Source of the DNA: Geosiphon pyriformis uo1
Lineage: Eukaryota > Fungi > Glomeromycota
Direction: 5' to 3'
DNA: 64,000 nt
Assembly (NCBI GenBank): GCA_016748015.1
Contig: JAAOMT010000557.1
Coordinates: 124,001-188,000 of the forward strand
The position numbers and the translations under genes were made by a program. Position 1 is the stretch's first letter; the number at the start of each line of letters is the position of its first letter. Shown here one piece after another: positions 7,174-48,391 of this stretch. Under the pieces are notes generated by a model. It worked only from the letters and a program-made list of their open reading frames with translations, was not told the origin of the DNA and searched no databases.

Positions 7174-7444
7174 TGTATTAAATTAATTTTAATTAAACAC
7201 AAAAATAAAATGTGAATTTTTACAATTAAAATAGAATTAAATCATAAAAATATATATATATATTTTTTAATAATTAAATAAATATAAAATAATTAAAAAA
7301 AAAAAAAACTTCTTTCTTTCGTTCATCTCAAATTCCCAAAAAGAGTCAAAAAGTTTTTTTGAAAAAAGTTTTTTCAACATTCAGTACGATAAAACCAAAC
7401 CATTTTTTGATTTTAAGACCATTGTTGGCCTTAGTATTGCTATC

Positions 7445-18742: not shown

Positions 18743-18762
18743 NNNNNNNNNNNNNNNNNNNN

Positions 18763-19413: not shown

Positions 19414-19490
19414 TAACACAGTATTGAACCACTATAGTAACTTAGAATTTAATGAAGAAATTAATTTCGATTTCAACAGAGCTCAATCTT

Positions 19491-19505
19491 GAAAGGAGGG
19501 GATAA
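19491..19505 (+). promoter_or_regulatory. E1 polypurine tract GAAAGGAGGGGATAA
   Basis: Directly precedes the 3' LTR start TGTTACAG at 19506. Confidence 0.85.
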
Positions 19506-19625
19506 TGTTACAGTTTAAGAATTTAGCAAAAAGAATCATAAAAATAATACAAACTATTCAATCATAATATAGCACAGTAATAATCTTAGAAAGGTAATGA
19601 TTAACNNNNNNNNNNNNNNNNNNNN

Positions 19626-25313: not shown

Positions 25314-26242
25314 TGTTACAGGTGATTCTTTGGGGTGTCTAGTGAATAACAAACCTATAACTTGGTGCGCAAAGCAATTGGTGATGATAATAATCTAAAG
25401 GTATTTTATCTGAAGGTTTTCCAATCGAGTTCTTTGTATAATAGACAGAAATTCAATGGTAACAGTTTATCAGTAGTTTCCTGAAACCGTAGTTTTGTCA
25501 ATTGCTTGCTCAGCTTGATGGTTGATGATTCTCCTGGTATGATATCCTTCGTAAGTATATACTAGTGCTGTTTCCTGACATCAGTTCCTTCATAAGTCCT
25601 CCAAGAATAAGTATTGTTTAAACAAGTTTATTCCTTTGTAAGTTCTCCAAGAGTAAGTATTGTTTAAGTAAGTTTTATTCCTCCATAAGTCCTCCAAGAG
25701 TAAATTCTTTAATCAAGTTAGTAGACAACAAAGAAAATAAAAAAAAGATAAAAGAGAAAATAAAAAATAAGCCAAGACAATTTGCAAGTTAGTATCCCGT
25801 TAATAGCCATGATCAAGAGTTATTGTTCCAATATAGTTAAGTATTAGTTACTATCAACATAAAGTGTTTGATAGTAAAGAATGAATTTGATATAGCAAAT
25901 AATTATTTATTTGAGAATTGTGATAACTAAGCTAAGAATTCTTGGTATCAATTCTGTTTTTTCTGTTTTTACCATTACTGCTATATATACATATTTGAGA
26001 TTCCTCAATTCTTTAATTCTTTGTAACAGAAATTCTGGGATTCCTGGAATCTTGCAATTCCTGATGAAAGAAGTCCTGAAATTCTGGAATCCTGCAATTC
26101 CTTATTGGAGAATCCTGAAGTTCCTGGAATTCTGCAATTTCTTTGAGAGGAATTCTGGAATTCCACATTTACTACGTCTACTTCTGATTGGCTAATCTCT
26201 ACTTGCTAATAATAATATACTTCCTCTATTCTATGAATAACA
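25314..26242 (-). repeat. E2 3' LTR
   Basis: TGTTA..TAACA ends. Contains CCAAT, a GGAATT-rich array, TATA and a 46-47-bp tandem repeat. Paired with 34686-35597. Confidence 0.92.
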
Positions 26243-26256
26243 TTATTCCCTCCTTT

Positions 26257-26886
26257 TTAATATTGAGCTCTGTTGAAATCTAACTCTTTTAATTCCCCCT
26301 CTTGAATTATTTCTTGAACTTCTCTTTCAAGTATTACTTGTGTTATTTGAGTTTGTAGTTTTTCAAATTGGGCATTGGTCATTTTCCCTAATTGATTACT
26401 CATAACTGTATCTATTGCTGTATTGAGTAAGATTTCTGGTCAGTCTTGAAATTTCATATATAGCCAGTAAATGACTTGAGCTTGTGTGATTAGATTGTTC
26501 TTTCCCATAAATTGTTCCAGTTGTCTCAGTATTGTTGTGTCAAATAACTGTTTTGTTTTGTCGGTGTACAAATTCTAGATATTTACATGTTGTCCCAAGT
26601 GAAAATAACAATAGTTTTTTGGAAATTGTTGCATTCATTAAGTCCAAGTTTCTCTGGTAAGTTCTTGGTGTAATCCGACTATTTATTGTTCTTTCATGGC
26701 CAATTTTACCTTGGTCATAATCTTGTTAATAACATTTTCGAGTTTTTTCTGTACTTTGTGTTATGGTATCCTTGCAGTACTTTTGTATCAAATGGTTTGT
26801 TAATTGATTGTAATTTCCATTTTCTGGTGTTGGATTAATTGAAAGATTTGTTGTGCCAATGAATGGATGTTGTTGGTAATTTCCAT
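26257..26886 (-). pseudogene. E2 ORF3: 209-aa protein of unknown function in the env position
   Basis: MEITNNIHSLAQQ...LDFNRAQY*. Same 630-nt length as the E3 copy, with conservative substitutions. Confidence 0.75.
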
Positions 26887-26940
26887 TTTTCTGTATTTTT
26901 CTGTCATGTCAACCATGCCTTTATAAATTCTTTCTGTTAA

Positions 26941-28320
26941 TCAATTGGATGTGTTGTTATCAATGATAATGATTGGTTCCAGATCTCATAGAATCTCATC
27001 TGGTTGGACTAGTATTCTCTGTACTCCCAGTTGTGAAATATTACTGGTGAATGATACTATATGGTGATATGATTTCAGTTGATCTTCATGTGCTGTTTTG
27101 GTCAAGATTTTGTTATTCCATCTTAATTTGTAAGCTCCATTTCCTAGAATTTCTTCTATGTGAAATGGTCCATCCCATTTGGAGTCAAATTTTCCACTCC
27201 ATTGTTTTTCCACTTTGGTATGATGTAGTAGTACTTTGTTTCCAATCTTGAATTCAACTGGTTTATCTGGTAGTTGGTTGTCATGTTTTTTTTTTTGTTT
27301 TTCTTGTGACCTTTGTATGTTATCAGCTGCTCTCCGTCATTTGTTTTCTAATGTTTTTATTAAGTCATATGTTTTTTTCAACAATGTGTTTTTGAAATTC
27401 TCTTCTATTATTGATTCAGTTGGGTATGTGCTAACTTCTATTTCCACTGGTAGTGTTGCTGTTCTGCCATATACTAATTCAAATGGTGTTGCTTGTGTAG
27501 TATCTTGCTTCATTGTCTAATAAGCAAATAGTACTGATAGTATCAACAAATCCCAATTGTTCTGGTTTTTTTGGCTGAGCTTAGTTATTGCTTCACACAA
27601 TGTTCTATTGAATTTTTCGACTAATCCGTTGGTTTGTGAATGATATGGTAATGATAATGGTCTCTTAATTCCGAATCTTTGGCTCAATTCTGTTAATGTT
27701 TTGTTTACAAAATGAGTTCCTTGGTCTGATAATAATTCTTTTAAACATCCATGTTAACAAATCAAATCCTAATAAACAAATTTGGCAATGGATTCTACAT
27801 CCACTCTTTGAATTGCTTTTGCTTCTGGCCATTTGGTAAGATAGTCCATGACTACTGCAATATATCTGTTGCCTCTGCTGGTTATTGTTAATGGTCTGAC
27901 TAAGTCAATTCCAATGCAATCAAATGGTTGTTCCACTTTGATTGGTTTTAATGGTTCACTTGGTCTTATTCCTTTTATTTTCTGACAAGCATCACAATTT
28001 TGAACATATTGAATGATGTCTGAATATATTGATGGCCAATAATATCTTTTTTTGGTTCTTTTCATGGTTGCTTCTTTGTAAAAGTGTTCTGCTGTTGGAT
28101 TTAAGTGTATGTTGAATAATATTGTTTCTTTTTCTGGCTCTGTAATTACTCTGGTTGGTTGATCTAGATCTTTTCTATTTTTCCAATAAAGTATATTTTG
28201 GTGAGTGATAAAATATTTTAATTGTTGTTTGATACTTTTTCATTCTGTTTGAGATAAATTCTCCTTGAACTGTTGAGTGTTTATATAATGTTGAAGTTGT
28301 TGATATTTTTGTATGTTCAT
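26941..28320 (-). pseudogene. E2 integrase (apparently a stand-alone ORF, 460 codons)
   Basis: MNIQKYQQLQHY start, HHCC (HLNPTAEH...CDAC), IGIDLV / LSDQGTHF / GLVEKFN and WDGPF. No chromodomain seen. Confidence 0.88.
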
Positions 28321-28383
28321 CTTTTGTTATATTTTTTGTTGGTATTGTTCTGGTTTTGTTATATTTTTGGGTTTGAGATGTTT

Positions 28384-31300
28384 TTAGATTTGTCTTATTT
28401 GTGACAAATCATCAGCATTTCCATTGTCTTTTCCTTCCTTATAGTGTATAGTATAAGTATATCATAAGAGTGCCATTTTCCATCTGGATTGATGGCCATC
28501 ATTAAATTCTTGCTTTTAAAGTGATGTTAACCCTTTATGATTTGTGTATATATCAAACTTTTGGCTCAAGTATTTGTTCCACTTCATAACTGCCTAATAG
28601 ATTGCTAAATGTTCTAGTTCTGGTGTTCCATAGTTCTTTTTGGCTGGTGTTAGATCTTGGCTGGCATATGCTACTGAATGTTTTCTGCTGTCTGGTCCCT
28701 TCTGAAATAGTACTGCTCCCAATGCTTGGCCTGATGCATCAGTGGTAATGATAAATGATTTGTTGTGATCTGAGTAGATCAGTACTGGAGCTTGAATGAG
28801 CTTTCTTTTCAGAATATCAAAAGCTTCTTGTTGACTTTCTGTTCATTCATATTTGGTATTCTTGGTTTGCAGATTATTGAGTGGTTGAGCTATTTTTGAA
28901 AAGTTTTTTATAAAGTGTTAATAATAGCTTGCAAATCCCAAGAATGATTTCAATTCAGTCATATTGGTTGGTATTAGAAAGTTCTTTACTATCTCTATTT
29001 TCTCTGGATCTATTTTGATGCCATCTTTGCTGACTATGTATCCCAAGAATTTTAGTTCTGTCTTGCCGAAGAAGCACTTTGTTGTATTTAACTTTAGTTC
29101 TGCTCTTCTTAGCTTTTCGAACACTTGTTAAAGATGATGAAAATGATCATCAAATGTTTTTGAGAATACATTGGTGTTGTCCAAGTATACAACTACTGAT
29201 TTCCACAATAAGTCAGTATAAACAATTTCCATTAGCCATTGGAAAGTGGCTGGGGCATTGGTTAAGCCAAAAGGCATCACTTTAAATTCGAAATTCTCTT
29301 CTCTAGTGGTGAATGCCATCTTTTTTTTGTTGGCTGAATTCATGGCTACTTGTCAGTAACTACTGTCCAAGTCTAATGTTGAGAACTATTTGTTTCTGCC
29401 GAAAGCATCGAATAATTCTTGTATTCTTGGGGTTGGATAGCTGTCTTCACGAATTACACCATTGAGTTTCCTGTAGTCCACACAAAATCGGATTTTTTTA
29501 TTCTTCTTCCAAATGAGTACCACTGGTGATAACTATGGGCTCATTGATAGTTGAATTAGCCTGTTGTTAAGTATTCAGTTTATCTCTTGACAAATAATCT
29601 CATGGCTAGCTGGTGGTACTCTGTATGCTCTTTGTTTAATTGGCATTGCATCTCCAGTCTTGATCTGATGCTGGATGATGTCAGTTTGGCCAAACTTGTT
29701 TTTACTGACAAAGATGTCATTGAAATTGTTAAACAACATCTTGAGCTGTATATATTGGAGTAGATCTAAGTTTCTCATGTTCATTTGTTCTAATTGCTCT
29801 GGTTGAAGCAAATAATATTCACTTTGTTCATATATTGTTTGTGATGTGATATCAACATATCCACAAAGCTGTGAAAAGTCCGGAATGGTGCTTGGTGGTT
29901 GATCCTCTATTTCAGTACTTAAGTATCCAATGGTAGTTTTGATTGGTATTACTATGATATTTCCTGTGTTATTGTAGATGGGAATTTTGATGTGGCTGTA
30001 ATCTTTGGCTGGTATATGGAGATTGATAAGTCCAATCTCTCCTAATTTACAAAGGGTTGTTTCTGCTTCAAAAATCTGATTCTGTTCTTTTACTTCTTGC
30101 TTTATTCCTACCATGTACTGATCATATGGTGGAATAGAAATTGCTTGACCCATTGAGATAAATTTTTCTTGGTCAACAATTCCTTCTTCTGCCATATTGA
30201 CTGGTACATCTATTCTACCCGTTGATCCAAATCTCTGTATTTCTCTTGCTGTTATCCCTAATTCCTCTCTATTTCCCACTAATACTAACTGAGCTATTTT
30301 CATCAGAGGCAGGAGTATTGCCTGTGTTATTTTTTTGTTTAGCTCTATGATATAAGCTTTTTCAGAGTCATTTTGTAGCATAGCAATGATATTTTCTACA
30401 TATCCTGCATCAATTATTCCTTTTCTTATATTAATCCTTCTTTTTGCTAAATTATTCCTAAATGCTAATTGAATCATTGTTGTTGCTGGAATTTCCAGTG
30501 CTATTTTCAGATCTATGCAGGTGCGCGAATGTGGTTCCAATTTTATAACATCTTTTCCAGGATATCTCAGATCAAATCCAGTATCAGTATCATGTGCATG
30601 TTCTGGCATGATACTTTTATTATTGTCATTATACCATTTCAACTTCTGTTCTTTAGAGAGGTCTGACAGTGCAATGTATTGTTCATATTTTGGGTTGAAG
30701 TTTGAATTTGAGTTGGAATTGTTGTTATTGTTATTGCCAATTTGAACAGAACTGGAACCAGTGTTTTTATTATTGTCATTGTCAGAGTTTGAATCAGGAT
30801 CGAACAGTGATTCCAATTTGGATGCGCAGCTGCTGATTGGTTCAATTTCTTCTGGGATTGTGTAGATCATGCGTGGTAGTGAATTGTAAATGAGGTTACA
30901 CTCATTACAATATTGGAAGTCATAGGGAATCAAACAGTGGTCACATAATCGGGTGTTTAGTTGTTCTAAACACTGCTTCTGCTCTTCTCTTGTAGGTGCC
31001 AAATTTTGGTAGTATTCATGGAAGTTTTCTGGATCTGTTTCTTTGTCCATAAAAGTGTCTGGGTTAGGAATACGAATGATATCAACTGGTTCTGGGTGAT
31101 TGTTCTTAATTTCCAGTATTTTATTGGGTGTAGCATCTTTTACTTTGGCATTGGCCATTCACCAGATCTCCTCTTCATCGTGGGGGTAACCATCTAAACA
31201 ATCAAGTGCTTGGTGCTATGCTGCTGTAATCGGGGTACCACGACTCACCCAGTCACTAATAACAATCATATATTGGCATGAAGTGTCACATGTTCCTCCT

Positions 31301-34300
31301 CAACCAGGAATGTCATTCCATATTTCTTCATCGAGCAATTGTTCACTGCAAGCGAGACATGATTTATTGTTCCACTTGCCTTGTTGTTTTGGGTAGCCAT
31401 AGCATTCTCTATGGCAAGGTTTGCAATAATAGTGGGTTCGCATCCAGTAGTTCTCATCTGGTACAATCCAGGTTTTCATGAAAAAAAGTTTCTTCTCACA
31501 GTCTTTGCACTTGAGTGGTATGTATGGTGGTTGTGGTAGTGGCTTATAAATGGAATATGAACAAGTCCAGCCACTAGTAATGTCTTTTGTTGATTCGATT
31601 TTCTCCAGTATGTTGTCTTTTTTTTTTTTTCCTTTTCCTTTTTCTTCCCAACTTAGTGTAGATAGCAACTCATTTTGGTTGTCATCAATCCAAGCACCAA
31701 TAGTGGTTTCCCAGATATGTTCTTCTTTTTGCTTTCCTTTTCTATGGTTGTCTTCGTCCCAGGCAAGTATGGGCAGCAGTTCATTGTGATCGACATCAGC
31801 CCACAAAACCTGATATGCTTCTCATGTTGATTTCTTTGTTTTCTTCTTAAATTCGATTAATGGCTGCAAGTTGGTTGGTTTAAAGTGACCACATACTGCT
31901 GATGCCTCAGTATGTTGACCATTTTGGCTCAGTTGGAGCTTTTGCATCATCCAATTGAGTATGGTATTTGTTTTGGATAGCCAATCATTTCCAACAAGAG
32001 CTTGGTACTGAGTGGCTTCTATTACAAGGACTTTGATGGGTATCATGATGCCATTAATTTTGATAGGTAGGTTGTCTATTTCGCCTATTGGGGTTTTGGT
32101 TACTCCATCAGCTGTAATGATTCTTGCACTGGCAGCTCAGTTAATTCAGTGACCTAATTGATCCATGAGTTGCTTTGTTATAATGCTGCCAGCTAATCCA
32201 CTATCTAAGATCAGTTTGATGGCATGGCCATTGATTTTGGTATTTGTATACATGGCGGTGATTGGCTTCTTTTCAAGAACTGCTCTACTAAACAATAGAA
32301 CTTTGATCATTTCTTCCAAGTTGAAGAGAAAGATGGCCATAAGCAATTCATTGTTGGTGACAGTTGTTGATGGAATGTTGTTGGTAAATGCTTGTTGTTG
32401 GTTGGATCCCAAATTGTTGATAATGACGTCTTCTTGGATAACCAGAAGACTTAAATAGTTCTGGAAATTTGGGTTTTGGGTGGCACCAGTACTCGAATTC
32501 CGAGAACATGATCCTGATGGTGAGTTGGAGGAACTGGGGATCAATTGGTAGACAACCATTGCTGATCTCCAGTTTTGTTGTGTTATTCTTGGTCTTTGGA
32601 TTTCGTCTTGAAGTAAGTTTTGGGGTGGTGTTTGAATGGTTTGAGGTTGATAGATTACTTGTGGCTGTGGTTGATATATTGCTGGTGGTTGTGGTTGATA
32701 AACTGGGGTCTGATATACTGGTGCTTAATAAATTGGCTGCTGCATCGTTGACAGATAAGTGTTTGGGTATTGATCTTGATTTTGATATTGATTCTGGGTT
32801 TGGAATTGGGGATTGGGGTTTTGATGTTGATTTCCCAATTGTCAGTTATAAGCATTGCAGTTGGCTTTTATGTGACCTTGTTTACCACAGTTGTGGCAAA
32901 CACACATTTCCTGCTGCCATGGTTGATTAATTGACAATAATGGACGTGCTTGATTTTGGAAACAATTGGTGTTTCTCTGATTACTGCATTTTTGGGGAGA
33001 TTGATAAATGGACTGATGGTTGTTAGTTAAGTATCCCTCAATTTTCTGATTAATGGTATCACTGATTTGTTTCAATTTGGAATCCAAATCAAATGATTCA
33101 TTCATTACTAAATTTACAGCTTGAACATGGTTGGTTTTTAGCTCAGCTGATTCGAAATCTCTGGCATGTGTGACTGTGGCTTAAAGGTTGGCTGGGTGTA
33201 ATGGGCATACGTGTTGCAAAATACTACTGCACAGGCCACGAATAAACTGGTTGAAGATCTGGAGTTCTGTGAAATACACAGTGTTGATGGCTTAGATTTG
33301 GCGTAGAACTCTATAAAAGTGTTCTAGGTATGTTGTGACTGCTTCAGTATTATTCTGTTTGATTGTAGTAAAAGTATTGGTTAGACAATTAATACTGTTA
33401 TTGTTGCTAAAATATTCCAGAAAGGCAGTTTTGAATTGTTGAAATATTTGTGGTCTGGTGGTTAAACTCTGGTACCAAGAATTGGTGGTTTCTTTGAGAA
33501 AGTATGGTATTGCCTATAGGACTCTGGCATCATCCCAATTGTTTACTATGATGGCCTTGAAGATGTCATTGATCCATGCTTAAGCGTTATCTTCTTCACA
33601 GGTAAAGTTTTCTAACTTTGTGATAGGTGTGTAGACCATTTGGTTTACGTTTAGTTATTGTAGTGGCTGTTGAAGTGGTTGTTGTTGCACGGGTTGTTGG
33701 GGTGGTAATTGAAGTGGCTGCTGTATGGGTTTGGCTATTGGATTAATTGGTGGTTGATCGATGACGATTACTGAAGATAAGTTTTGTTGATTTATTAAAT
33801 CGGAATTCTGATTGTTTTGATTTTGCTAAGTTTTAATATTCAGAGTTTCAATTTCCAGATTTTCTATGTTTGGATTTTGTGGAGTTTGAACGTTCGGGGT
33901 TCCGAATTTCGAGTTTTTTGAGATTAGGTTTTGGTAAGTGAATTCTTAATCTTCACTTTCTTCCTCTTCTTTCTTTGATAATTCTCATGGAATAGTGGCT
34001 CCGAAATCTGATTGGGGTAGTGGTGATTGAATTCCTGATGGCATTGGAGATCATGATTTAAATCCTTCAAAATACACGCCATATGGTCCTAGTAAGTTTT
34101 CTTTCCATTGTTTGCTTTGGAACTGAAATCTTCCAAAATTTTGATGTCATATTTGATGTGGACACATTTGCTGATAAAATATTAATGGTGCTTCCAAATG
34201 TGTAGTAATATAATGGAGTGGTTGGTGATTCTACTCTGTGTTTCTTCCAACTAGATAACTGTATTCCTTTTGGTATTGCTGCTGGTGTTTGTATTCTTCC

Positions 34301-34624
34301 TTTACTTTTGTCTGCGTAGGTAATGAAAAATTGTTGTTGCATGTATTTTTCAATAATTTGATTAATTTCCCTGATGATTGGGGCGAAACTGTGATTTCTT
34401 GGTAAGCTAGTGTGTTGAAATAATTCTGTATAGAAATTTTTTCTTGCTGACTTAATATTAACAATTTCTCCTAAACAGTTTGTGATTTTATCATTGACAT
34501 AATAGTTAAAGGCTGATTTGGCTGAGTAGTGATTACTGTTTAATTCTAATTGTTGGCTGTATTGTTGAAACAAAGATTTTGCAAATCCTAAGTGGTTGGC
34601 TCCTATAATTTCTGATTCTACTAC
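28384..34624 (-). pseudogene. E2 Gag-PR-ZnF-dUTPase-pseudo-dUTPase-RT-RNase H polyprotein
   Basis: Motifs CHNCGKQGHIKANC, LDSG, DTGFDL / GIIDAGY / RFGSTG, RFCVDYRKLN, MPFGLTNAPATF, YLDN, TDASGQALGAVL and ELEHLAI. Pieces from 33105 to 28386 share one frame. Confidence 0.9.
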
Positions 34625-34685
34625 ATTTGGATGGTGTTGTTGGTGCTGGTTCTCTGTAGGATTATACTTCATAGAGAGCACCAAA

Positions 34686-35597
34686 TGTTACAGGTGATTT
34701 TTTGGGGTGTCTAGTGAATAACAAACTCATAACTTGGTGCACAAAGCAATTGGTGATGATGATAATCTGAAGGTATTTTATCTGAAGGTTTTTCAATCGA
34801 GTTCTTTGTATAATAGACAGATATTTAATAGTAACAGTTTATTAGTAGTTTCTTAAAACCGTAGTTTTGTTGATTGCTTGCTCAGCTTGATGGTTGATAA
34901 TTCTCCTAGTACGATATCCTCTGTAAGTATATACCAGTGCTGTTTCCTAATGTCAGTTCCTCTGTAAGTTCTCCAAGAGTAAGTATTGTTTAAGCAAGTT
35001 TATTTTCCTGTAAGTTTTCTAAGAATAAGTATTGTTTAAGTAAGTTTTATTTCTCTGTAAGTCCTCCAAGAGTAAATCCTTTAATCAAGTTAGTAGACAA
35101 CAAAGAAAATAAAGAAAAAATAAAATAAAAAATAAAAAATAAGCCAAGGCAATTTGCAAGTTAGTATCTCGTCAATAGCCATAATCAAAAGCTATTGTTC
35201 CAGTATGGTTAAGTATCAGTTACTATCAATATGAAGTGTTTGATAATAAAGAATGAATTTGATATAGCAAATAATTATTTATTTGAGGATTGTGGTAACT
35301 AAGCTAAGGATTCTTGGTGTTGATTCTGTTTTTTCTGCTTCTACTGCTACTGCTATATATACATATTTGAAATTCCTCAATTCTTCAATTCCTTGCAACA
35401 GGAATCTTGTAATTTCTGATAAGAGAAGTCCTGGAATTCTGGAATTCTGCAATTCCTTACTAGAAAATTCTGAAGTTCTTGGAATCCTGCAATTTCTTTG
35501 AGAGAAATCCTGGAATTCCATATTTACTACATTTACTTCTGATTGGCTAATCTCTACTTGCTAATAATAATATACTTCCTCTATTCTATAAGTAACA
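34686..35597 (-). repeat. E2 5' LTR
   Basis: Direct repeat of 25314-26242, followed on the minus strand by PBS TTTGGTGCTCTCTATGAA. Confidence 0.92.
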
Positions 35598-38058
35598 ATG
35601 CAGTATCTAAAGAGGTTTGAGAAGCAAATTCCACACAAAAAAGCTTTATATTGTCTTTTGAAACAAACTTAGCACCCAAGAAACCATGTATTAACTAAAA
35701 AACAGTCTTAACATGAGCCAATTTAATCTTAAAAGTAGCACCAAGCACCAGAATAGAGGCCACCCACCCAGCAAATCTTTGACGACTAGTAATAGTTTCC
35801 CAAGCACCACCAGAAGTAGCACCAAAAACTAAAGGAGAAGATGATTCAGTTTCTATATGATCAGCCCAGTTTTCAAGAACAAGTGACCCAACAGGAGAAA
35901 ATTGCTTTGTTTTTAAAACTAGCAATGATTTGCTAAAAGACACCACATTTGGCAATACAGCCAGTGGTTGATCTTGGCCCATCTTGAACAATGTACTAGA
36001 TAATGCTACAGAGATCTCATCTAAGATCTCATTGGAAACCACAAAGGGGTTCAGTGTAACAATAGCAGAAGCAAGTGACTGCCTCCACTTTTCTGAACTT
36101 TTGGTCTTTTTGACCATTTTTTTTGAAGAGGTAGTGCTAGCAGCACCAAATGTTAAAGCTATAGAAAGGAAGACCAGCTTGTTAACTGGTCTATTATTAA
36201 ACACTTTTGGGCTCTTAGTAGGGGTGAAGACAACACTAAGACTAATCCAAGTGTGTTTCTTTGAAGGAACTTTGACTGGTGAAAAACCAGCCAAAGATGA
36301 GGAAGTTGCTTCAGTGGCTACCAAAGGCAGCTTATCATGATTACTGAGTAAGGAAAAGATTTCTAAAATATTCTGCCTAGTTGTTTCTACAACAGAGAGA
36401 GCTCCTCTGGTTGAAATTTTATTAGATATCTCAAGACAGATATCAGGTGCAGCTTTTTTACTCTTTGTGATCATAAAATTAAGAAAACAAAAAAAATAAT
36501 TATATATTAATTTTTGACTAATCTTTATTAATTTTAAAAACAAAACAAATCATGTTTTTACATATATATTTTTCTTATTAAACCATTAAATTACTTTTAA
36601 TTTTAAAAATTAAATTAATAAAATAAAAACAAAATCAATTTTTTTTGTTTTTTAATACTGTTTTTAATAATATTTAAAAAACAATTATTAATTATTAAAA
36701 TTTTGTTAAATAGATAACTTTTATTCTAATATTTAATATTTTGTTAAAATTAAATTGGTTTTTATTAGGACTGTATTTTAGTTTATAAATAAATTTATTA
36801 GTATTTAAAAATAATATAAAGTTTTTTTGTATAAAATTTGGTTTTTAGACTTTTTTGAATACTGTATTTTAAGTATTTTTAACCATATTTGTAATTAATA
36901 TTAAATCTGTTTTTAGTATATAATAAAATCTTTAAAATTATATTAAAACATTTTAGTATTTAACAATATATTATGATATATTTTAAGTTTTTTAATATAA
37001 TTATAACTGTTTTAATATATTAATTAGTTTTGATAAGCAAAAATAATTATAAAATTTTTTTTGGTAAATTAAAAAATATATATTTTAAATCTAAATTAGT
37101 TAATTTTTTTTGGTTGTATAGCTTTTAAAATTAGCAAACTAGTTTTTTAAGTTAATAATTATACATGTTATAACAGGTGATTTTTTTTTGAATCTTAAGT
37201 CAAATAACAAACCCATAACTTGGTGCTCAATTGATATAGTGTTGTTGGTAATATTTGAAGGTATTGTTATCTGAAGGTTTTTTTTTGTTAGTCTTTTGTA
37301 TAATGGACAGAGATTTGATAGTGTGGCAATTTGTCATTTGTTGTCAATTGTTTCCCAATTTTTTTCTCAGCTTGGTGGCTGAATTTATTCTGACAGTCAT
37401 GTCCTTCTGGTAAGCTAACTGATAATATATATAAATCTACCCTTATTTCTGGGTCTTTTACCAGGCTATCTGTAATGTTAATAACTCAGCGCTTTTAATC
37501 CTCAATCAATTAGTAGGCACAACAGAATTAAAGAAAGAAAGAAATAAAATAAAGAAAATAGCGATGATGAAGATAAGCCAAGGCAATTTAGTAAGTTAAT
37601 ATCTCATCAATAGCCATAATCAAGAGCTATTGTTTCAGTATGGTTAAGTATCAATTACTATTAATATGAAGTGTTGATAGTAGAGAGTAAATTGAGATAT
37701 AAAATAATTATTTATTTGATAATTGGGAATTGGAAGATTGCTTAGATTAAATCTAAACTGAGAGGTCTATCTTTTTAGCTTCTAATCCTGCTGCTATATA
37801 TACATAATTGAGATTTCTCAATTCCTCGATTTTTCATGACAAGAATTCTGGAATTCCTGGAATCTTGCGATTTCTTTGAGAAGAATCCTAGAATTCTGGA
37901 ATCCTGCAATTCTTTGTTAGGGAATCCTGAAATTTCTGGAATCCTGCAATTCTTGAAAGAAATCCTGGAATTCCACATTTACTATGCCCACTTCTGATTG
38001 GCTACTAATCATGCTAATATATTTTCTATATTTCTATGAGTAACATTATTCTCTCCTT

Positions 38059-38688
38059 TTAATATTGAGCTCCATCAAAATCCAACTTGTTTAATTCCCC
38101 CTCTTGAAGTATTTCTTGGATTTTGTTTTTAAGAATTACTTGTGTTATTTGGGTCTGTAATTCTTCAAATTGAGTATTGGTGATTTTTCCCAATTGATTA
38201 CTGGTAACCATATTCATTGCTTTGTTGAGTAATATTTCTGGTCTATCCTGAAATGCTGTGTGTATTCGGTATATGACTCGGGCCTGTGTGAATAAGTTGT
38301 TCTTTTCCACAAAATGTTCTAATTGTTGTAGTATTTTTTTGTCGAATAATTGCTTTGTTTTATTTGTATATAGATTCTGGATATTTATGTGTTGTTCCAA
38401 GTAAAAGTAACAATAGTTTCTTGGAAATTGTTGTATCTACCAATTCCAAGTTTCTTTAGTCAACTCTTGATATAGTGCCTCTTTTGTTGACTCTCTTATT
38501 GCTAATTTTACTTTCATAATGATTTTGTCCACCATATTTTCAGTTTTCTTCTTTGTTCTGAGTTGCAATGTTTTTCTAGTATCTTGATATCAAATGGTTT
38601 GTTGATTGATTGTAATCTTCATTTCTTGGTGTTGGATTAATTGAAAGAGTTGTTGTGCTAGTGAGTGAATGTTGTCTGTAATTTCCAT
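38059..38688 (-). pseudogene. E3 ORF3 (209 aa, unknown function)
   Basis: MEITDNIHSLAQQ...LDFDGAQY*, 630 nt. Confidence 0.75.
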
Positions 38689-38741
38689 TTTCTGATATTT
38701 CCTGTCGTGTTTACCGTGTCTTTATATATTCTTTTGCTGAA

Positions 38742-40123
38742 TCAATTTAACATGTTGTTGTCAATAATAACAATTGGTTCCAGATCTCGTGGAATCTTAT
38801 CTAGTTGAACTAGTATTCTCTGTACTCCTAATTGTGGAATATTACTAATAGATGGTATTGTAATGTTGTGGTATGGTTTCAGTCAATCTCTATGTGCTGC
38901 TTTGGTTAAAATTTTGCTATCCAGTCTTAATTTGTAAGCTCTATTTTCTAGAATTTTTTCTATGTGAAATGGTCTATTCCATTTGGGGTCGAATTTTCCA
39001 CTCCATTGTTTTTTCGCTTTGGTATGATGTAAGAGTATTTTGTCTCCAATCTTGAATTCAACTGGTTTGTTTAGTAGTTGACTATTGTGTCTTTTTTTCT
39101 GTTTCTCTTGTGACTTTTGAATATTATTAGCTGCTCTTCTTTGTTTGTTTTCCAATGTTTCTATTAAGTCATATGTTCTTTTCAGCAATGTTTCTTGAAA
39201 ATTCTCTTCTGTTATTAGTTCAGTTAGATATGTATTAATTTCTCTCTCTACTGGTAATGTTGCTGTTTTACTGTATACTAATTCAAATGGTATTGCTTGT
39301 GTAGTATCTTGCTTTATTGTCCGATAAGCAAATAATATTGATGGTATGAACAAGTCCCATTCGTCCTGGTTTTTTTGGCTGAGTTTGGCAATTGCTTTAC
39401 ACAATGTTCTGTTGAATCTTTTGACTAATCCGTTGGTTTGTGAATAGTATAGTGATGATAATGGTCTCTTAATTCCGAATCTTTGGCTCAATTTTGTTAA
39501 TGTTCTGTTCACAAAATGAGTTCTTTGGTCTGATAATAATTCCTTTGGACATCCATGTTGACAAATTAAATCTTGATGAATGAATTCGGCAATGGATTCT
39601 GCATCTGCTCTTTGAATTGCTTTTACCTCTGGCCATTTAGTAAAATAGTCCATGACTACTGCTATATATCTGTTTCTTTGCTGGTGATTGTTAATGGTCT
39701 GACTAAATCAATTCCAATCTGGTCAAATAGTTGTCCCACTTTGATTGGTCTTAATAGTTTACTGGGTCTTGTTCCTCCTCTTTGCTGACAAGCATCACAA
39801 TTTTGAACATATTGAATGATGTCTGGATACATTAATGGCCAATAGTATTTTTTTCTGGTTTTTTCCATGGTTGCTTCTTTGTAAAAGTGTCTGGCTGTTG
39901 GATTTGAGTGCATGTTGAATAATATTGTCTCTTTTTCTGGCTCTGTAATTACTCTGGCTAGCTGATCTGGATCCCTTCTATTTTTCTAATACTATATATT
40001 TTGGTGAGTGATAAAATATTTTGATTGTTGTTTGATCCTCTTTTGTTCCATTTAAGATAAATTCTCCTTGAACTGTTAAGTGTTTATATAATGTTGGAGT
40101 TGTTGATATTTTTGTATGTTCAT
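38742..40123 (-). pseudogene. E3 integrase (stand-alone ORF; +2 frameshift near 39665)
   Basis: MNIQKYQQ start, HSNPTARH...CDAC, IGIDLV, LSDQRTHF and WNRPF. Confidence 0.88.
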
Positions 40124-40183
40124 CTTTTGTTATTTTTTATTAGTATTGTTCTGGTTTTGTTATATTTTTGGGTTGAAATGTTC

Positions 40184-43100
40184 TTAGATTTGTCTTATTC
40201 ATAACAAACTGTTGGCATTTCCATTGTTTTTTCCTTTCTTATAGTATATAGTATAAGTATATCGTGATAGTGCCATTTTTCATCTGGATTGGTGGCCATT
40301 ATCAAATTCTTGCTTTTGAAGTGATGTTAACTCTTTATGATCTGTGTATATATCAAACTTTTGGCTTAAGTATTTGTTCCACTTCATGACTGCCCAATAG
40401 ATTGCTAAATGTTCTAGTTCTGGTGTTTCATAGTTCTTTTCAGCTGGCATATTGTACTGGATGTTCTCTGCTGTCTGGTTCCTTCTGAGATAGTACTGCT
40501 CCCAATGCTTGGCCTGACATATTAATAGTAATGATGAATGGTTTGTTGTGATCTGGGTAGATCAATACTGGAGCTTGAATGAGCTTTCTTTTTAGAATAT
40601 CAAAAGATTCTTGTTGATTTTCTGTCCATTTATATTTGGTATTCTTGGTTTGCAGATTATTGAGTGGTTGAGCTATCTTTGAAAAGTTCTTTATAAAGCG
40701 TCAATAATAGCTTGCAAATCCCAAGAATGATTTCAATTCAGCCACATTGGTTGGTACTGAAAAGTTTTTTACTATCTTTATTTTCTCTGGATCCATTTTG
40801 ATGCCGTTTTTACTGACTATATGTCCCAAGAATTTTAGTTCTGTTTTGCCAAAGAAGCACTTTGTTGCATTTAACTTTAGTCCTGCTTTTCTTAATTTTT
40901 CGAACATTTGTTGAAGATGATGAAGGTGATCATCAAATGTTTTTGAGAATACATTGGTATTATCCAAATATACAACTACTGATTTCCACAATAAGCCAGT
41001 ATAAACGATTTCTATTAACCATTGAAAAGTGGCTGGGGTGTTGGTTAAGCCAAATGGCATCACTTCAAATTTGAAATTCCCTTCTCTAGTGGTGAATGCT
41101 GTCTTTTCTTTGTCAGCTGGATTCATGGCTACTTGCCAATAACCACTGTCCAAATCTAATGTTGAGAACCATTTGTTCCCACCAAAAGTGTCAAATAATT
41201 CCTGTATTCATGGAGTTGGATAGTTGTCTCCATGAATTACACTGTTGAGTTTCTTGTAGTCCACACAAAATCAGATTTTCCCATTCTTTTTACGAACAAG
41301 TACTACTGGTGACAACCATGGGCTTATTGATAGTTGAATTAGCCCATTGTCAAGTATTCAGTTTATCTCTTGACGAATGATCTTATGGCTGGCTGGCAGC
41401 ACTTTGTATGCTCTTTGTTTAATTGGCATTGCATCTCCAGTCTTGATCTGATGCTGGATGATGTCAGTTCGGCCAAACTTGTTTTCACTGGCAAAGATGT
41501 CTTTGAAATTGTTGAGCAATATCTTGAGCTGCATATGTTGAAGTGGATCTAAGTTTCCTATGTTTATTTGTTCCAATTGTTCTGGTTGGAGTAAATAATA
41601 TTTGTCTTATCCATAGATTGTTTGTGATGTGATGTCAACATATCCACAAAGTTGTGGAAAGTCTGGAATAGGGTTTGGTGGTTGGTTTTCTATTTCTGTG
41701 GTTAAATATCCGATGGTGGTTCCTTCTGGTATGTTGATGATATTGCCAGTGTTGTTGTAGATGGGAATTTCTATGTGGTTATAGCTTTTGGCTAGTATGT
41801 AGAAATTGATTAGTTCAATCTCTCCTGATTCACAAAAGCTTGCTTCAGCTTCAAAAATCTGTTCTTGCTCCTTTTCTTTCTTTTCTATTGCTAGCATGTA
41901 CTGGCTATATGGTGGAATGGAAATAGCTTGACCAGTTGAGATAATTTCTCTTTGGCCAACAATTTTTTCCTCTGCCATATTAACTGGTATATCTATTCTA
42001 CCCATTGATCCGAATCCCTGTATTCCTCTTGCTGTTATTCTTAATTCCTCCCTTTTTCCCACTAATACTAATTGAGCTACTCTAACCAGAGGCAGGAATA
42101 TTGCCTATGCAATTTTTCGTTGGGCTCTATTATATAGGCCTTTTCTGAGTCATTTTGTAGCATAGTGATGATATTTTCTACATATCCCACATCAATTATT
42201 CCTCCTCTTATATTAATTCCTCTTTTTGCTAAACTACTTCTAGATGCTAATTGAACCATTATTGTTGTTGGAATTTTTAGTGCTACTTTCAGATCAATGC
42301 AGATGCATAAATGTGGTTCCAATTGGATGGCCTCTTTTTTTGGATACTTCAGATCAAACCCTGTATTAGTATCATGCACACGTTCTGACATAATACCTTC
42401 CCTATTGTCACTATACCATTTCAACTCTTGTTTTTTGGAGAGATCTGGTAGTGCAATGTATTGTTCATAGTTTAAATCAGAGTTTAAATCTGAGTTTGAA
42501 TTGTCTTTATTGTTATTGCCATTTTGAACAGAGCTGGAACTGGTGTTTTTGTCATTGTCATCAGAGTCTGGATTGTGATTGATCAGCAATTCTGATTTCG
42601 ATGCACAGCTACTGATTGGTTCTTCTTCTTTAGGGATTGTGTAGATCATGCGTGATGGTGGATTGTAAATGAGATCACAATCATCACAATATTCAAAGTC
42701 ACTGAAAATTAAACAATGGTGACACAGTCTTGTATTTAACTGTGCTAGCCATTGTTCTTGCTTTTCTCAAGTAGGTGCTAAGTTTTGGTAGTGTTCATGG
42801 AACTTTTCTGGTTCCAGAAAATTTATGACTGGCTCTGCATCCCAGTCAAGCTTGATGGGTTCTGGTGGATTGTTTTTAATTGTCCTGATTTTTTCTGGCA
42901 ACATGCTTTCAATTTTGGTGATTGCTATCCGCCATAATTTATTGTCGTCATGTGGACAACTGTCCAATTGTTGTACAGCTCTTCTCCAGGTGGCTTCTAT
43001 GGGTGTTTCTTTCTCGACCCAGTTGCTAATGAGAATCATGTATTGGCAGAACACGTCACACGTTGTTACTCATAGAATATAGGAATTAAATATTAGTACA

Positions 43101-46100
43101 TAAATTAGCCAATCAGAATAAATGTAGTAAATGTGGAATTCCAGGATTCCTCTCAAAGGAATTGCAGGATTCCAGGAATTTCAGAATTCTTTTCAAAGGA
43201 ATTGCAGGATTCCAGGAATTCCAAGATTTCTGGTGTGAAAAATTGAGAAATTGAGGAATCTCAATTATGTATATATATAGCAGTAGTATCAGAAGCTAGA
43301 AAATTAGAAAAAATTTAGGCAGTCAATTAGGCTCAAAGTTAAGAAAACTGAGAGTCAGTAGGACTCTCAGAGTCAATTAGACTTGCAGATCATAATTATT
43401 AAATATCCTTCCTTCAAAAAATAGAATACTATAACTTGAAGTGAAATCACTCCCATATTAATATTATTATCCACTACTTAATCTGTTGGCACAATAGCTC
43501 TTGATTATGGCTATTGACAAGACACTTATTTCTTATTTTATTTTCTTTATTTCTTTATTTTCTTTTATTTTTCTTTATTTTATTTTCTTTTGTTGTTTAC
43601 TAATTGATTAAAAGAATTAAGCACTGAGTTATTGACATCAAGGATAGCCTGGTAAAAGACCCAGAAATAAGGGTAGAATTATATATATTAACAGATAGCT
43701 TACCAAAAGGATACGACTGCTAGAATAAATCTGGCTGCTAAGCTGAGAAAAAAATTGGGCATAATTGTGACTCCAGGAAAACTACTACCATCACTACTAA
43801 ATCTCTGTTCATTATACAAAGAACTCCACAACAAAACCTTCAGATCCACCAAACCTTCAAATAAAACAACACCTTTAGAGATACCAACACCAATTATATC
43901 AATTGAACACCAAGTTATGAGTTTGTTATTTGATTTGAGACCCCAAATAATCACCTGTAACAATGTTTCTTCTCTCTCTGGAATGTTGTTCCATATTCCT
44001 TTATCAAGAAGAGTTTCTCCACAGGCTATACATGATGTATTATCCTATTTTCTCACTTGTTTTGGTCTTCCAAAACGTTTGACATGGCATGCGCGGCAAT
44101 AGAACTTAGTTGTCATCTGATATTCTTTATTGTCACCACAGCATGCACCCATTAACAACAATTTTTTGCCACAATCAATACATATTAGTTTGGGTCAGCA
44201 ATAGATCGATGATTGTTGTTAACCGTAGGTGTATAAGATATAAGTGTTGTTGACTTAAGTATTTTCTTCCTTCCTCTCTTTCCCTTTTCCCTTTTTTTCT
44301 TTCCACTCCCAACTCAATGGTTCTTCCTGTTTATTGTCGGTCCAGGTCAAATCATCTGTTTCCCAGATCAGTTCTTCTTTTTGCTTTCCCTTAGGGTTGT
44401 TATTCCATGAGAGTATTGGTGGTAGTTTGTTGTGGTCAGCATTGGCCCAGGAGACTTGGTAAGCTTCCCAGGTAGGTTTCTCTTTCTCCTCCTCCAGTTC
44501 GATCAATAGTTTCTCTCTTGGAGAAGTCTTGAAATGGCTACACGTGGCCAGTACACATATGTGTCAGTCTTGATATGTTAGCTGGAGTTCTTGGGTGTTT
44601 CAGTCTAACGTCGCATTGACTTTAGATAGCCAGTCATTACCAACGAGAGCTTGGTATTGAGTGGCTTCCATCACTAGAACTTTAATGGAAGTCACAATGC
44701 CATTGACTTCAAAAGGGAAGTCATCAATTTTGCCAATTGGAGTTTTGGTCGCTCCATTGGCTGTGATGATTCTGGTGCTGGCAGCTCGATCAACTTGGCA
44801 ACCTAATTGATCCATGAATTGTCGTGTGATGATGCTGCCTGCTGAACTGCTGTCAAGGATCAATTTGATGGATTGTTCCTCAACTTTGGCATCAGTGTAT
44901 ATCGCAGTGATTGATTTGGCTTCAAGAGCGGCTCCACTAAATAATAGCGTTGTAGTTGTTTCCTCAAATTTGAATGGGAATATAGCAGCCAAAGACTTGT
45001 CTTTGGTAATGATAGCAGATGGGATATTGCTGGTGAGTGGTTGTTTTTGGGCAAATGCCAGGTTATTGGTTGAGGCATCTTCTAAGGTGACCAGGAGACT
45101 TAAATAGTTTTGGGAATTCAGGTTCTGGAGTTGACTGGCACCCGAATTCCACTGGCATAATCCAGATGGTTGCTGTGAAGAACTGGAGATTAGTTAATGG
45201 ACTACTATTGCCGATCTCCAGCTCTGTTGAGTCATTCTCAGTCTTTAGATTCCATTTGGTGGTAAGCTTTGGGGTGGTGTTTGGATTTGTTGGAGCTGAT
45301 AGATTATTTGTGGCTGTGGTTGTTAATAAATTACTTGTGGCTGTGGTTGATAGATTGGAGCTTGATACACCAGAGATTAATAGACTGATGACTGCATCAC
45401 TAGTAGGTAAGCGGGTTGGTTTTGATTTGGGTACTGATTTGGAGTTTGGAACTGGTGATCAGAGTTTCAATATTGATTTCCCGATCGTTGGTTATTTAAA
45501 TGCAGATGACAGTCAATTTGGATATGTTCTTGTTTACTACAATAGTGGCAAATACACATTTCCTGTGGCCACTGTTAATTAGTCAATAAAGATGGACATA
45601 GTTGATTTTGGGCATGATTAGAGTTTTCTTGATTATTGTATTGTTGTAGAGACTGATAAATGGCATGATTGTCAGCTAAGTATCCTTCCAATCTTTTATT
45701 AATTGATTCACTGAACTTTTCCAATTTGGAATCCAATTCAGATGATCTATTTATTATTAGATTAACGACTTGGACATGGTTAGCCTCTGACTCAGTGGAT
45801 TCAAAATCTCTGGCATGTGTGACTGTGTCTTGAAGAGTGCCTGGATACAATAGACGTACATGTTGCAAGATGCTGCTGCACAGGCCACGGATAAACTGGT
45901 TGAGTATCTGTGGGGCTGTGAAATAGTTGGCATTAATTGCTTGAATTTAGTGCAGGTTTCGATGGAAGCATCTTAGGTAAGTGGTGACCGCTTCAGTTTC
46001 TCCTTGTTTCATGGTGGTGAATGTATTGACTAGGTGATTGATGCTGTTATTGTTGCTAAAGTATCTTAGGAATTCTGCTTTGAAGGCATTGAAATCTTGT

Positions 46101-47269
46101 GGTTTATTAACCAAGCTCTAATACCATAAATTGGCAGTATTTTTGAGAAAGTAGGGAATGGCTTATATTGCTTGGGCATCATTCCATCCATTGGCTGCGA
46201 TGGCTTTTTCTACATCATTCAGCCATACTTGAGTGTCATCCTCTTTGTCAGTAAAGTTGTCAAGTTTTGCGATTGGTGCATAGGCCATTGGACCTAAGTT
46301 AGGTGGTTGTGGTGGCTGTTGAAGCAGTTGTTGTTGTACTGATTGTTGGGGTGATAGTTGAAGTAGCTGTTGTATGGGTTCGACTATGGGATTAATTGGC
46401 AGTTGATCAATGACAATTACCAGAGGTAAGTTTTGCTGATTAATTAATTTGGGGTTTGAGTTGTTCTGTCTTTGATGATTCAAAGTTTTGATTTCCGAAT
46501 TTTCTAGATTTAGATTTTGCTGAGTTTGAAAATTTGGGGTTTCAACTTCCGGGTTTTCAGTGATTGGGTGCTGGTAAGTGAATTCTTAATTCTTTGATTC
46601 TTCTTCCTCTTTTTCTGATTCTGCTGCTTCCCACAGATCAGAGATTCCGAAATCTGGTAGAGGTGGTAGTGATCGAAGTCCTGATGAGGTTGATAATCGT
46701 GAATTAAATTCTTCAAAGTATTTGCCATATGGTCTTAATAATTCTGTTTTCCTTTGTCTACTTTGGAATGGGAATCGTCCAAATACTGATGTTGCAGTTG
46801 ATGAGAACACATCTGTTGATAATATGTTGATGGTGCTTCCAGGTGTATAGTAGTAGGATGGGTTGCTTGGAAATTCAATTCTGTTTTTTTTCCAAGTAGG
46901 TGGCTGTATTTTTCTGGGTGTTACTGCTGGTGTTTGTAGTTTTCTCTTGCCTTTATTAGCATATGTAATTGGATATCTTTGTTGAGTGTGGTGTTCAATT
47001 TTTTTGTTGATCTCAGTGATGATGGATGTGAAATTATAATTTGTTGGCAGATTGGTGTTTTGAATTAACTCTCTATAGAAAGTTTCTCTTGCTGATTCAG
47101 TATTCACTGGTGTTCCTAATAAAGAAGAAATTTTTTCATTGACATAGAAATTGAAGACTGATTCGATGGATATATGATTGTGGTTTAATCCCAAGTATTG
47201 ACAATAGTGTTGAAATAAGAATTTTGCAAATTCCAAATGGTTTGCTCCTATATTTTCTGATTCTGCCAC
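40184..47269 (-). pseudogene. E3 Gag-PR-ZnF-dUTPase-RT-RNase H polyprotein, interrupted by the solo LTR
   Basis: Motifs RSSLA, GGIIDVGY, RGIQGFGSMG, MPFGLTN and YLDN. Short direct-repeat (GCTGG) deletion in RNase H near 40445. Confidence 0.88.
43064..43962 (+). repeat. Solo LTR (E2/E3-related) nested in the E3 Cys-rich domain
   Basis: TGTTAC...GTAACA ends, TSD ACGT / ATGT. CCAAT at ~43109, 40-bp repeats at 43141-43230, TATA at ~43270. Confidence 0.92.
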
Positions 47270-48391
47270 TTTTGGATGGTGTTTGTTGGTGCTGGTTCTT
47301 TGTAGAATTATACTTTACAGGGAGCACCAAATGTTACAGGTGATTTTTTTTGAATCTCAAGTCAAATAACAAACCCATAACTTGGTGCTCAATTGATATA
47401 ATGTTGTTAGTAATATCTGAAGGTATTGTTATCTGAAGGTTTTTTTTTGTTGAGTTCTTTGTATAATGGACAGAGATTTAATAGTGTGGCGATTCATCAT
47501 TTGTTGTCAATTGTTTCCCAATTTCTTTCTTAGCTTGGTGGCTGAATTTATTCTAGCAGTCATGCCCTTCTGGTAAGCTAACTGATAATATATATATATT
47601 TACTCTTATTTCTGGGTCTTTTACCAGGCTATCTATGACGTCAATAACTCAGCGCTTTTAATTCTTAATCAATTAGTAGGCACAACAGAATCAAAGAAAG
47701 AAAGAAATAAAATAAAGAAAATAGTGATGATGAAGATAAGCCAAGGCAATTTAGTAAGTTAGTATCTTGTCAATAGCCATGATCAAGAGCTATTGTTCCA
47801 GCATGGTTAAGTATCAATTATTATTAACATGAAGTGTTGATAGTGAAGAGTAGATTGAGATATAAAATAATTATTTATTTGATAATTGGGAATTGGAAGG
47901 TTGCTTAGATTAAATTTAAACTGAGAGGTCTATCTTTTCAGCTTCTAATCCTGCTGCTATATATACATAATTGAGATTCCTCAATTCCTTGATTCTTCAC
48001 AACAGAAATCCTGGAATTCTGGAATTCTGCGATTTTTTGTCGGGGAATCCTGAAATTCCTGGAATTTTGCAATTTCTGAGAGAAATCCTGGAATTTCATA
48101 TTTACTATGCCCACTTCTGATTGGCTACTAATCATGCTAATATATTTCCTATATTTCTATGAGTAACAATGTTTATTTTTATTTTTACATAATATTTACA
48201 ATATATTATTATTACTTTTATATTTTAAAAAAATTTAAATATTAATACTGTTAAAATTAGTATTTTAAAAAGTATTATATTTGATAAAAAACTTTTAAAT
48301 ATTAGTATTGTTTTAAGTATTAAAATATAAATTATTTTGTTTTAAATTGTAAAATAATATATTTATTTTTTTATATTATAAAAAAAAAAAA

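Follow-up and report, generated by a model that had tools for sequence, protein, structure and literature searches.

We analyzed a 64,000-nucleotide stretch of the Geosiphon pyriformis uo1 genome (GenBank assembly GCA_016748015.1, contig JAAOMT010000557.1, positions 124,001 to 188,000; hereafter the window), which carries two decayed Ty3/gypsy long terminal repeat (LTR) elements, E2 and E3. Their coding sequence is divided among three open reading frames (ORFs), i.e., a Gag-Pol frame ending with RNase H (RH), an integrase (IN) with an ATG of its own, and a third protein, ORF3. The three reading frames are conserved across many relatives and ORF3 is under selection; the three-gene architecture with a separate integrase is almost certainly real. 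Concerning expression, the integrase could arise through translational restart beyond the Gag-Pol stop, and ORF3 from a short transcript of its own. Taken as a whole, we regard this reading as evenly balanced.

Self-comparison of the window placed both elements on the minus strand, at 25314–35597 (E2) and 37169–48168 (E3), with internal regions 71–83% alike and LTR pairs 88% identical. Features of E2 and E3 given below lie on this strand. Both elements follow the order gag, protease (PR), Cys-rich domain, dUTPase, reverse transcriptase (RT), RH, stop, spacer, integrase, stop, spacer, ORF3, polypurine tract (PPT), and LTR. The Pfam domains Retrotrans_gag, aspartyl protease, dUTPase, RVT_1, RT_RNaseH, Integrase_H2C2, and rve were found in this order; the zf-CCHC match was weak (E 0.046), with the C-x2-C-x4-H-x4-C spacing visible. 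A preceding interpretation made from the letters alone (the sequence-only reading) had proposed such a three-ORF LTR element, and its domain order, junctions, and spacers were recovered in E2 as well as in E3.

A separate integrase in the window and in relatives

In E2, the RH stop (TAA, 28386–28384) is followed by a 63-nt spacer (28321–28383) that is 63% A, lacks any ATG, and contains a second in-frame TAA. The integrase ORF (26941–28320) then opens with its own ATG and encodes 459 aa, comprising the HHCC region, the core, and an SH3-like end, with no chromodomain. E3 has a 60-nt spacer (40124–40183), likewise free of ATG and 93% identical to that of E2, and an integrase ORF with its own ATG and one frameshift (38742–40123). 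The window alone cannot prove that the junction stops are programmed, because seven of the 41 premature stops in E2 are shared with E3; relatives settle this point.

Since a length-limited protein search favoured unfused forms, the DNA of relatives was fetched by integrase-core patterns, which gave 512 confirmed stretches from metagenomes; the 80 best among them were used (loci L001 onwards). The length-limited search itself returned 430 proteins, the best 120 of which were standalone integrases of ~390–440 aa with 42–50% identity, several of them from Rhizophagus irregularis. Methionine occupied the first position in the column of the window integrase start in 34 of 35 aligned standalone relatives. 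RH was fused to integrase in none of the 50 metagenome loci with RH upstream, corresponding to none of 52 junctions when E2 and E3 are counted. In a set of 51 junctions, which counts E2 and E3 and omits L075 as it has no start, the three possible frames occurred 15, 17, and 19 times, and lengths spanned −20 to about 1000 nt: ten junctions overlap, 27 have spacers of ≤120 nt, six of 121–250 nt, and eight are longer. Several of the longest spacers stem from broken Pol extensions. Because no locus was fused and the junctions fall into all three frames, we infer that the split between RH and integrase is ancestral, which upholds the claim of three separate ORFs. The same layout with unbroken frames is found in the relatives L024 (1621, 426, and 162 codons) and L059 (1849, 447, and 148 codons).

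No integrase relatives were detected in viral contigs. We found no account of a separate integrase or of this layout in the literature searched; transposable element libraries in supplements may already contain such elements. Our additions are a layout of three genes linked with a single ORF3 family, the contrast between the signals 5' of integrase and those 5' of ORF3, and an RNA structure.

Two further observations concern the relatives. In seven of them, TGA followed by CTA stands in frame between protease and RT (L009:2884, L012:872, L013:2500, L044:904, L060:3292, L064:1957, and L076:782), likely a conserved readthrough site dividing Gag-PR from RT-RH. In eight others (L006, L008, L014, L015, L017, L042, L053, and L057), Gag restarts ~0.9–2 kb past integrase, reflecting either tandem copies that share an LTR or an assembly collapse of two LTRs.

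Proposed reinitiation and competing explanations for the integrase

In RH–IN spacers of up to 250 nt, ATG occurred 13 times against 28.4 expected, and none of 1000 dinucleotide shuffles was as low (29 spacers; E3, L056, and two spacers of 2 nt were not counted). For the 24 that span up to 120 nt, the figures were four observed and 17.9 expected. The antisense control CAT was found 29 times against 34.7. A purine occupies position −3 of the integrase start in 66 of 69 cases, and the ten overlaps lie at −1, −4, −8, −14, or −20. Neither a conserved AG before the integrase ATG nor a TATA excess was detected (1 of 36 non-coding spacers vs. 0.8 expected). ATG depletion, the −3 purine, the lack of a conserved acceptor and of a TATA excess, and the stop–restart overlaps lead us to favour reinitiation after the Gag-Pol stop as the way in which the integrase would be made, with a slight lean rather than firm confidence. 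Passages of PMC5972666 describe such stop–restart in victoriviruses, hypoviruses, SART1, and LINE-1, based on overlapping stop and start codons or, in LINE-1, a 63-nt spacer, and the RH–IN overlaps match the UAAUG, AUGA, and AUGnxUGA patterns given there. Unlike in these cases, restart is here only proposed, and it would take place between RH and integrase inside an LTR element.

Under this proposal, the full-length RNA would be translated into a Gag-PR-dUTPase-RT-RH polyprotein, and some of the terminating ribosomes would pass over the spacer, which is short, rich in A, and free of ATG, to resume translation at the start codon of integrase. Integrase would thereby arise as a free protein in small amounts and would have to reach the particle or the cDNA by putative non-covalent binding. 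ORF3 would be translated from a 3' subgenomic RNA starting at the TATA box ~40 nt upstream and ending in the 3' LTR, and may act as an accessory protein that is soluble, basic, and helical. Its most plausible function would be to regulate the element in association with nucleic acids or ribosomes, a role that we offer tentatively, at somewhat less than an even chance. The standard model has integrase carried into the particle as part of Gag-Pol; a large and successful lineage in which it is made separately needs other means of dosage and delivery. The lineage would provide a natural range of junctions for eukaryotic reinitiation behind a very long ORF, from overlapping ones to bare spacers and a compact structured RNA.

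Several points weigh against reinitiation. All expression steps are deduced from sequence. The shuffle tests overstate independence, as the spacer sample holds related elements, and ATG depletion is equally expected from the short 5' leader of a separate RNA. In a sub-branch lacking ORF3, six junctions have spacers of 159–446 nt with one to ten ATGs and small basic ORFs, and simple scanning is no explanation for the loci with long ATG-rich spacers (L012, L013, L026, L030, L036, and L049). Regarding these small ORFs, the spacers of L012, L013, L030, and L036 contain Lys/Arg-rich ORFs of 48–67 aa that are shared in pairs.

The integrase could instead be translated from its own subgenomic RNA, generated by a TATA-less promoter, splicing from the 5' leader, or RNA cleavage, with the spacer serving as 5' leader. 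Such a short leader would likewise be ATG-poor with a good −3 context, a separate RNA would account for the long ATG-rich spacers, and, according to sections of PMC5408684, ORF3s of LTR elements typically derive from spliced messages. However, we found neither a conserved AG acceptor nor a TATA excess (1/36), and for the ten junctions that overlap the RH stop by 1–20 nt the stop–restart geometry would be superfluous. We consider this explanation unlikely, while according it real weight.

Caulimoviruses, whose TAV protein has a subgenomic RNA of its own, resemble the present elements in their close-set separate ORFs and in an extra element-encoded protein. TAV-driven reinitiation tolerates distances of a few to 700 nt (PMC5972666, in its part on these viruses). 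It is conceivable, at a low probability, that the elements represent an old Ty3/gypsy lineage of mycorrhizal fungi with pararetrovirus-like expression, in which ORF3 would be a transactivator of new fold with its own 3' promoter that enables the restart after the long Gag-Pol frame and thereby the synthesis of free integrase, and in which a 43-nt covarying RNA of one sub-branch would act as a hitherto undescribed intercistronic translation element. In Pfam and fold searches, ORF3 showed no relationship to TAV at the level of sequence or fold, an absence that does not exclude one, and the ORF3-less sub-branch still has a separate integrase.

This 43-nt RNA structure was found in 26 of the 80 loci, all from one sub-branch, where it immediately precedes the integrase ATG and occurs at no other position (L010, L015–L017, L020–L022, L024, L028, L029, L033, L038, L040–L043, L047, L048, L050, L057–L059, L066, L067, L073, and L078; e.g., L016:1127–1169). 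In the alignment, 96.9% of cells pair, eight of 13 pairs change on both sides, and none of 500 shuffles scored as high, the structure having been drawn from the same sequences on which it was tested. It has no Rfam match, and searches of viral and prokaryotic genome contigs for its motif pattern yielded nothing exact. Rfam further returned nothing for the window and one chance-level miRNA match in ten loci. A covarying structure that abuts the integrase ATG could point to internal ribosome entry at the spacer, independent of upstream translation, with the A-rich tract as its counterpart in Geosiphon. However, the structure is missing from the window (best E 0.74) and from 54 of the 80 loci. 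In loci with an intact Pol, the structure sits within ~60–150 nt of the Pol stop and might equally hold terminating ribosomes, and its derivation from the tested sequences lowers its weight. We judge internal entry to be improbable.

RH and integrase might also be joined by readthrough, frameshifting, or a small intron, yielding an ordinary Pol polyprotein. The spacers in the window are in frame (63 and 60 nt), the TGA-CTA stops of seven relatives suggest that recoding occurs in the lineage, and a protein search aimed at longer entries brought up three close ones in which integrase is joined to upstream domains, all gene models of mycorrhizal fungi, which is a point against a strictly separate integrase; the other 117 among the matches listed were ≤37% identical. 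These three models lack the first 22–24 integrase positions and, where RH is present, also the RH end, as expected from an intron invented by the predictor; judging from the proteins alone, we interpret the fusions as the product of introns predicted across the junction. Moreover, the junctions occur in all three frames and at lengths from −20 to about 1000 nt, and the window spacers contain two in-frame TAA stops and permit no in-frame GT-AG intron, making fusion very unlikely. Decay of a standard single-ORF element, to which the 41 premature stops of E2 with seven common to E3 could be attributed, can practically be dismissed, as the intact relatives L024 and L059 keep the layout and none of the 50 loci is fused.

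ORF3 and its candidate promoter

ORF3 of E2 (26257–26886) encodes a soluble, basic protein of 209 aa with eight premature stops and is separated from integrase by a 54-nt spacer (26887–26940); ORF3 of E3 (38059–38688) follows a spacer of 53 nt. In rough counts, dN/dS between the two copies is 0.22 for ORF3 and 0.24 for RT, and we take ORF3 to be under purifying selection. An ORF starting with ATG is present within 400 nt after integrase in 34 of 47 loci having at least 500 nt downstream. All of the best 120 of 125 ORF3 matches were Geosiphon pyriformis proteins, with up to 85% identity over the full length. Pieces of these elements are annotated as host ‘hypothetical proteins’ in G. pyriformis, which bears on gene counts in these fungi.

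A profile built from the ATG-initiated ORFs downstream of integrase in the loci finds 616 clusters, with named members in R. irregularis, Gigaspora margarita, and Glomus cerebriforme (three of ten looked up). The window ORF3 is a clear homologue of the ORF after integrase in L001 (31% over 201 aa, E 9e-19). Profile–profile comparison with the wider family aligned its motifs with their counterparts there at E 5e-4, improving to 2.5e-5 when L001 is included. The window ORF3 is therefore, as far as these comparisons indicate, a probable distant member of this soluble, helical family. Against membership, the window ORF3 alone scored no better than shuffles with the family hidden Markov model (6.1 vs. 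7.4 bits), and the 31 of 43 loci with a family match downstream include sequences from which the profile was built.

The family is soluble and mostly basic. None of 173 members reaches a 19-residue hydropathy of 1.6, i.e., a membrane segment; the maximum is 0.27–0.47 for Geosiphon and window ORF3, with 0.31–0.47 for the window copies. Env was thus ruled out as the identity of ORF3, and the label ‘retrovirus-like’ given to the element is misleading. AlphaFold modelled the ORF3 family protein of L008 as all helical with a predicted local distance difference test score (pLDDT) of 96.5; the model from a Geosiphon-only alignment (pLDDT 40.6) was not used. The L008 model had no fold match (best Foldseek E 0.38 in PDB and 0.05 among viral structures), and VIA-align reached at best Z 5.2 with a root mean square deviation of 5.1 over 87 residues, which does not establish a new fold. 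The 616 clusters of this family thus far match no known fold in these searches. Pfam searches of 32 and of 79 ORF3 proteins gave scattered single matches only, and a resemblance to DUF3102/YhcG-N found no support. Atlas had no match for Geosiphon ORF3; for L008 ORF3 it listed weak phage matches including a RegA-type repressor (0.93, 132 shared features), which we mention as a lead only. In the ORF3-less sub-branch, a purine tract and the LTR directly follow integrase in five loci.

The region 5' of ORF3 differs from that 5' of integrase. TATAWAWR was found 20–80 nt upstream of ORF3 in 17 of 33 cases against 1.4 expected, and TATA-like boxes in the non-coding spacer only in 10 of 25 against 1.1 expected (0 of 1000 shuffles), with no depletion of ATG (32 vs. 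33). In E3, a TATAWAWR box 40 nt 5' of the ORF3 ATG (38721–38728) is a candidate internal promoter. As TATA-like boxes are enriched and ATGs are not depleted, we consider it fairly probable that ORF3 is made from an internal promoter. This is tempered by eight TATA matches on the antisense strand of the 33 upstream regions, by the position of five of the 17 sense matches inside integrase coding sequence, and by E2, which has a relaxed box only (26925–26919) and does not meet the strict pattern found at −40 in E3. Polycistronic expression, as originally suggested for the whole element, therefore fits the integrase and probably not ORF3, given its TATA signal and undepleted ATGs.

Classification and insertions between protease and RT

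E2 and E3 show the hallmarks of Ty3/gypsy elements, i.e., LTRs with TG...CA ends, target-site duplication, a primer-binding-site-like tract, a PPT, and the order PR-RT-RH-IN. By similarity ranking among solved structures, RT-RH is nearest to Ty3 (E 5e-77; next entries E 2e-42 and 2e-24). With yeast Ty3 (Metaviridae), the elements further share a Gag with capsid (CA) and CCHC motif. They depart from the Ty3/gypsy standard, whose description in sections of PMC3248453 has integrase as a domain of Pol, by the separate integrase ORF with its own ATG and by the third ORF. None of 36 integrases matched a chromodomain family at E 0.05, and the integrases end soon after the SH3-like region, which sets the lineage apart from the chromoviruses among fungal Ty3/gypsy elements and agrees with the non-chromovirus placement of the sequence-only reading. 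Ylt1-like elements and SN_1006 are named as non-chromoviral fungal groups in PMC2864245, whose parts on fungal Ty3/gypsy groups make no mention of a separate integrase. Bdelloid rotifer LTR elements, as portrayed in portions of PMC5408684, also combine a third ORF after integrase with a dUTPase domain; unlike their Env-like, GDSL, or DEDDy ORF3s, the present ORF3 matches no Pfam family.

In an unrooted integrase-core tree computed in quick mode (167 rows, not counting E3 and one locus, whose alignments were short), elements with separate integrase, R. irregularis proteins, and the three fused models form one side of a branch with a Shimodaira–Hasegawa-like approximate likelihood ratio support of 81, which rises to 94 once L079 is removed; E2 and L001 are sisters there (98). 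The RT tree, likewise unrooted and computed in quick mode (73 rows, among them the long proteins of highest similarity, 42 in number, of which two are fungal fused models), divides the separate-integrase elements into two groups, which speaks against a single lineage; one clade was not rejected in the RT test (approximately unbiased p-value 0.58). Both trees lack named reference elements. The lineage extends across Glomeromycotina. A non-chromovirus Ty3/gypsy lineage is supported, and it is not restricted to this genome. In R. irregularis, Gypsy elements are described in parts of bioRxiv 10.1101/2021.03.30.436303 as expressed, methylated, and targeted by small RNAs; these parts give no account of the ORFs of those elements.

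Three segments lie between protease and RT in the window. The Cys-rich/helical insert (E2, 30847–31536) has a conserved Cys-pair pattern in four copies, a dN/dS of 0.25, and no Pfam match, and is predicted to bind Zn; of the proposed triple Zn-finger/helical domain, the Cys-pair pattern holds, with no known family behind it in Pfam. The dUTPase (E2, 30202–30636) was confirmed by Pfam (E 4.8e-9) and by PDB dUTPases (E 2.7e-8), with homology over the whole trimeric-dUTPase domain. The following 115-aa segment (E2, 29857–30201) is, like the Cys-rich insert, conserved and under selection (dN/dS 0.34), but not assigned to any family. Five sequence tests on three sequences only gave no support for dUTPase homology, and the second, dUTPase-like domain proposed earlier is unsupported. 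All three segments are missing from the 22 relatives spanning PR to RT. They are hence no hallmark of the lineage and look like additions of the Geosiphon branch. Fungal precedent for dUTPase between PR and RT is reported in parts of PMC2864245 and PMC6431247; the former places it there in PosPlaTy3-5 of Postia and records dUTPase also in Phanerochaete and Tuber elements. One relative has NUDIX in the PR–RT slot (L047:134–1009), and another has a NUDIX hydrolase in the ORF after integrase (L039:1945–2886); these captures are possibly a functional parallel to the window dUTPase.

In mostly motif-bearing elements, Pol runs 216–401 aa beyond RNase H, with an acidic region and a conserved Cys/His domain (L017:3497–4438, L024:4348–5163, L038, L045, L048, L053, L059, L067, and L078). 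Two of these extensions were scanned and had no Pfam match, and no relation to the Cys-rich insert of the window was detectable (probability 4.7%).

Further features of the elements and the window

The 5' LTR of E2 (34686–35597) has 912 bp and TG...CA ends, and a primer-binding-site-like tract beginning with TGG (34666–34683) lies 2 nt past it; TGG 2–3 nt past the LTR end is also found in relatives. The Gag N-terminal domain, read from the first ATG (34076–34672), is divided by a frameshift from the long Gag-Pol frame, which runs to the RH stop (28384–34116) with 27 premature stops, read with X at stops. In E3, this domain is continuous with the long frame. It had no Pfam match below E 0.05 and a dN/dS of 0.5. 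Within the E2 frame, CA (33636–33127), CCHC (about 32904–32857), PR (32271–31912), RT (29676–29017), and RH (28866–28387) follow one another, and E2 ends with the PPT (26246–26258) and 3' LTR (25314–26242). E3 comprises the 5' LTR (47332–48168), a Gag-Pol region with N-terminal domain, Cys-rich insert, stop, and several frameshifts (40184–47300), and the 3' LTR (37169–38045); CA (46285–45776), PR (44917–44561), dUTPase (42418–41985), RT (41459–40800), and RH (40649–40187) were located within its Gag-Pol.

Between the paired LTRs, nearly all differences are transitions (89/91 and 62/64), and observed/expected CpG is mostly 0.1–0.35 over the elements vs. 0.84–0.96 in the first 6 kb of the window. 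The RT catalytic motif reads YLDN in both copies, probably as a result of parallel CpG decay, and both copies are dead. Target-site duplications of four bases flank E2, E3, and two solo LTRs, two being exact and two having CpG-type changes only. The first solo LTR, of a further subfamily, lies at 57440–58235 (plus strand); the second, of a related subfamily, is inserted in opposite orientation inside the Cys-rich domain of E3 (43064–43962, plus strand). The window contains four LTR types that are 69–83% alike, in line with the at least three subfamilies claimed. According to portions of PMC11952901, LTR sequences make up 41.2% of the G. pyriformis genome.

Two partial related elements were also found. 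E1 (16730–21473, plus strand) contains CA, PR, the Cys-rich domain, dUTPase, and the next segment, and extends across assembly gaps; four 20-N gaps at 15975, 18743, 19606, and 21474 have duplicated flanks (96–100%), and E1 is probably mis-assembled. E4 (51016–53218, minus strand) contains CA, PR, and the start of the Cys-rich domain. The E2 LTR has a 46-nt repeat in three copies, and E2 and E3 have short GGAATTC-type repeats (34957–35075 and 48006–48103), arrays that are possible candidate enhancers. Decayed LINE-like elements with Pfam endonuclease and RNase H matches occupy 7215–13661 (+), 48290–51056 (+), 58531–63121 (−), and 22257–22736 (+). A host gene at 2505–4533 (+), in the CpG-rich part of the window, encodes a PIN domain and a weak SWT1 C-terminal match.

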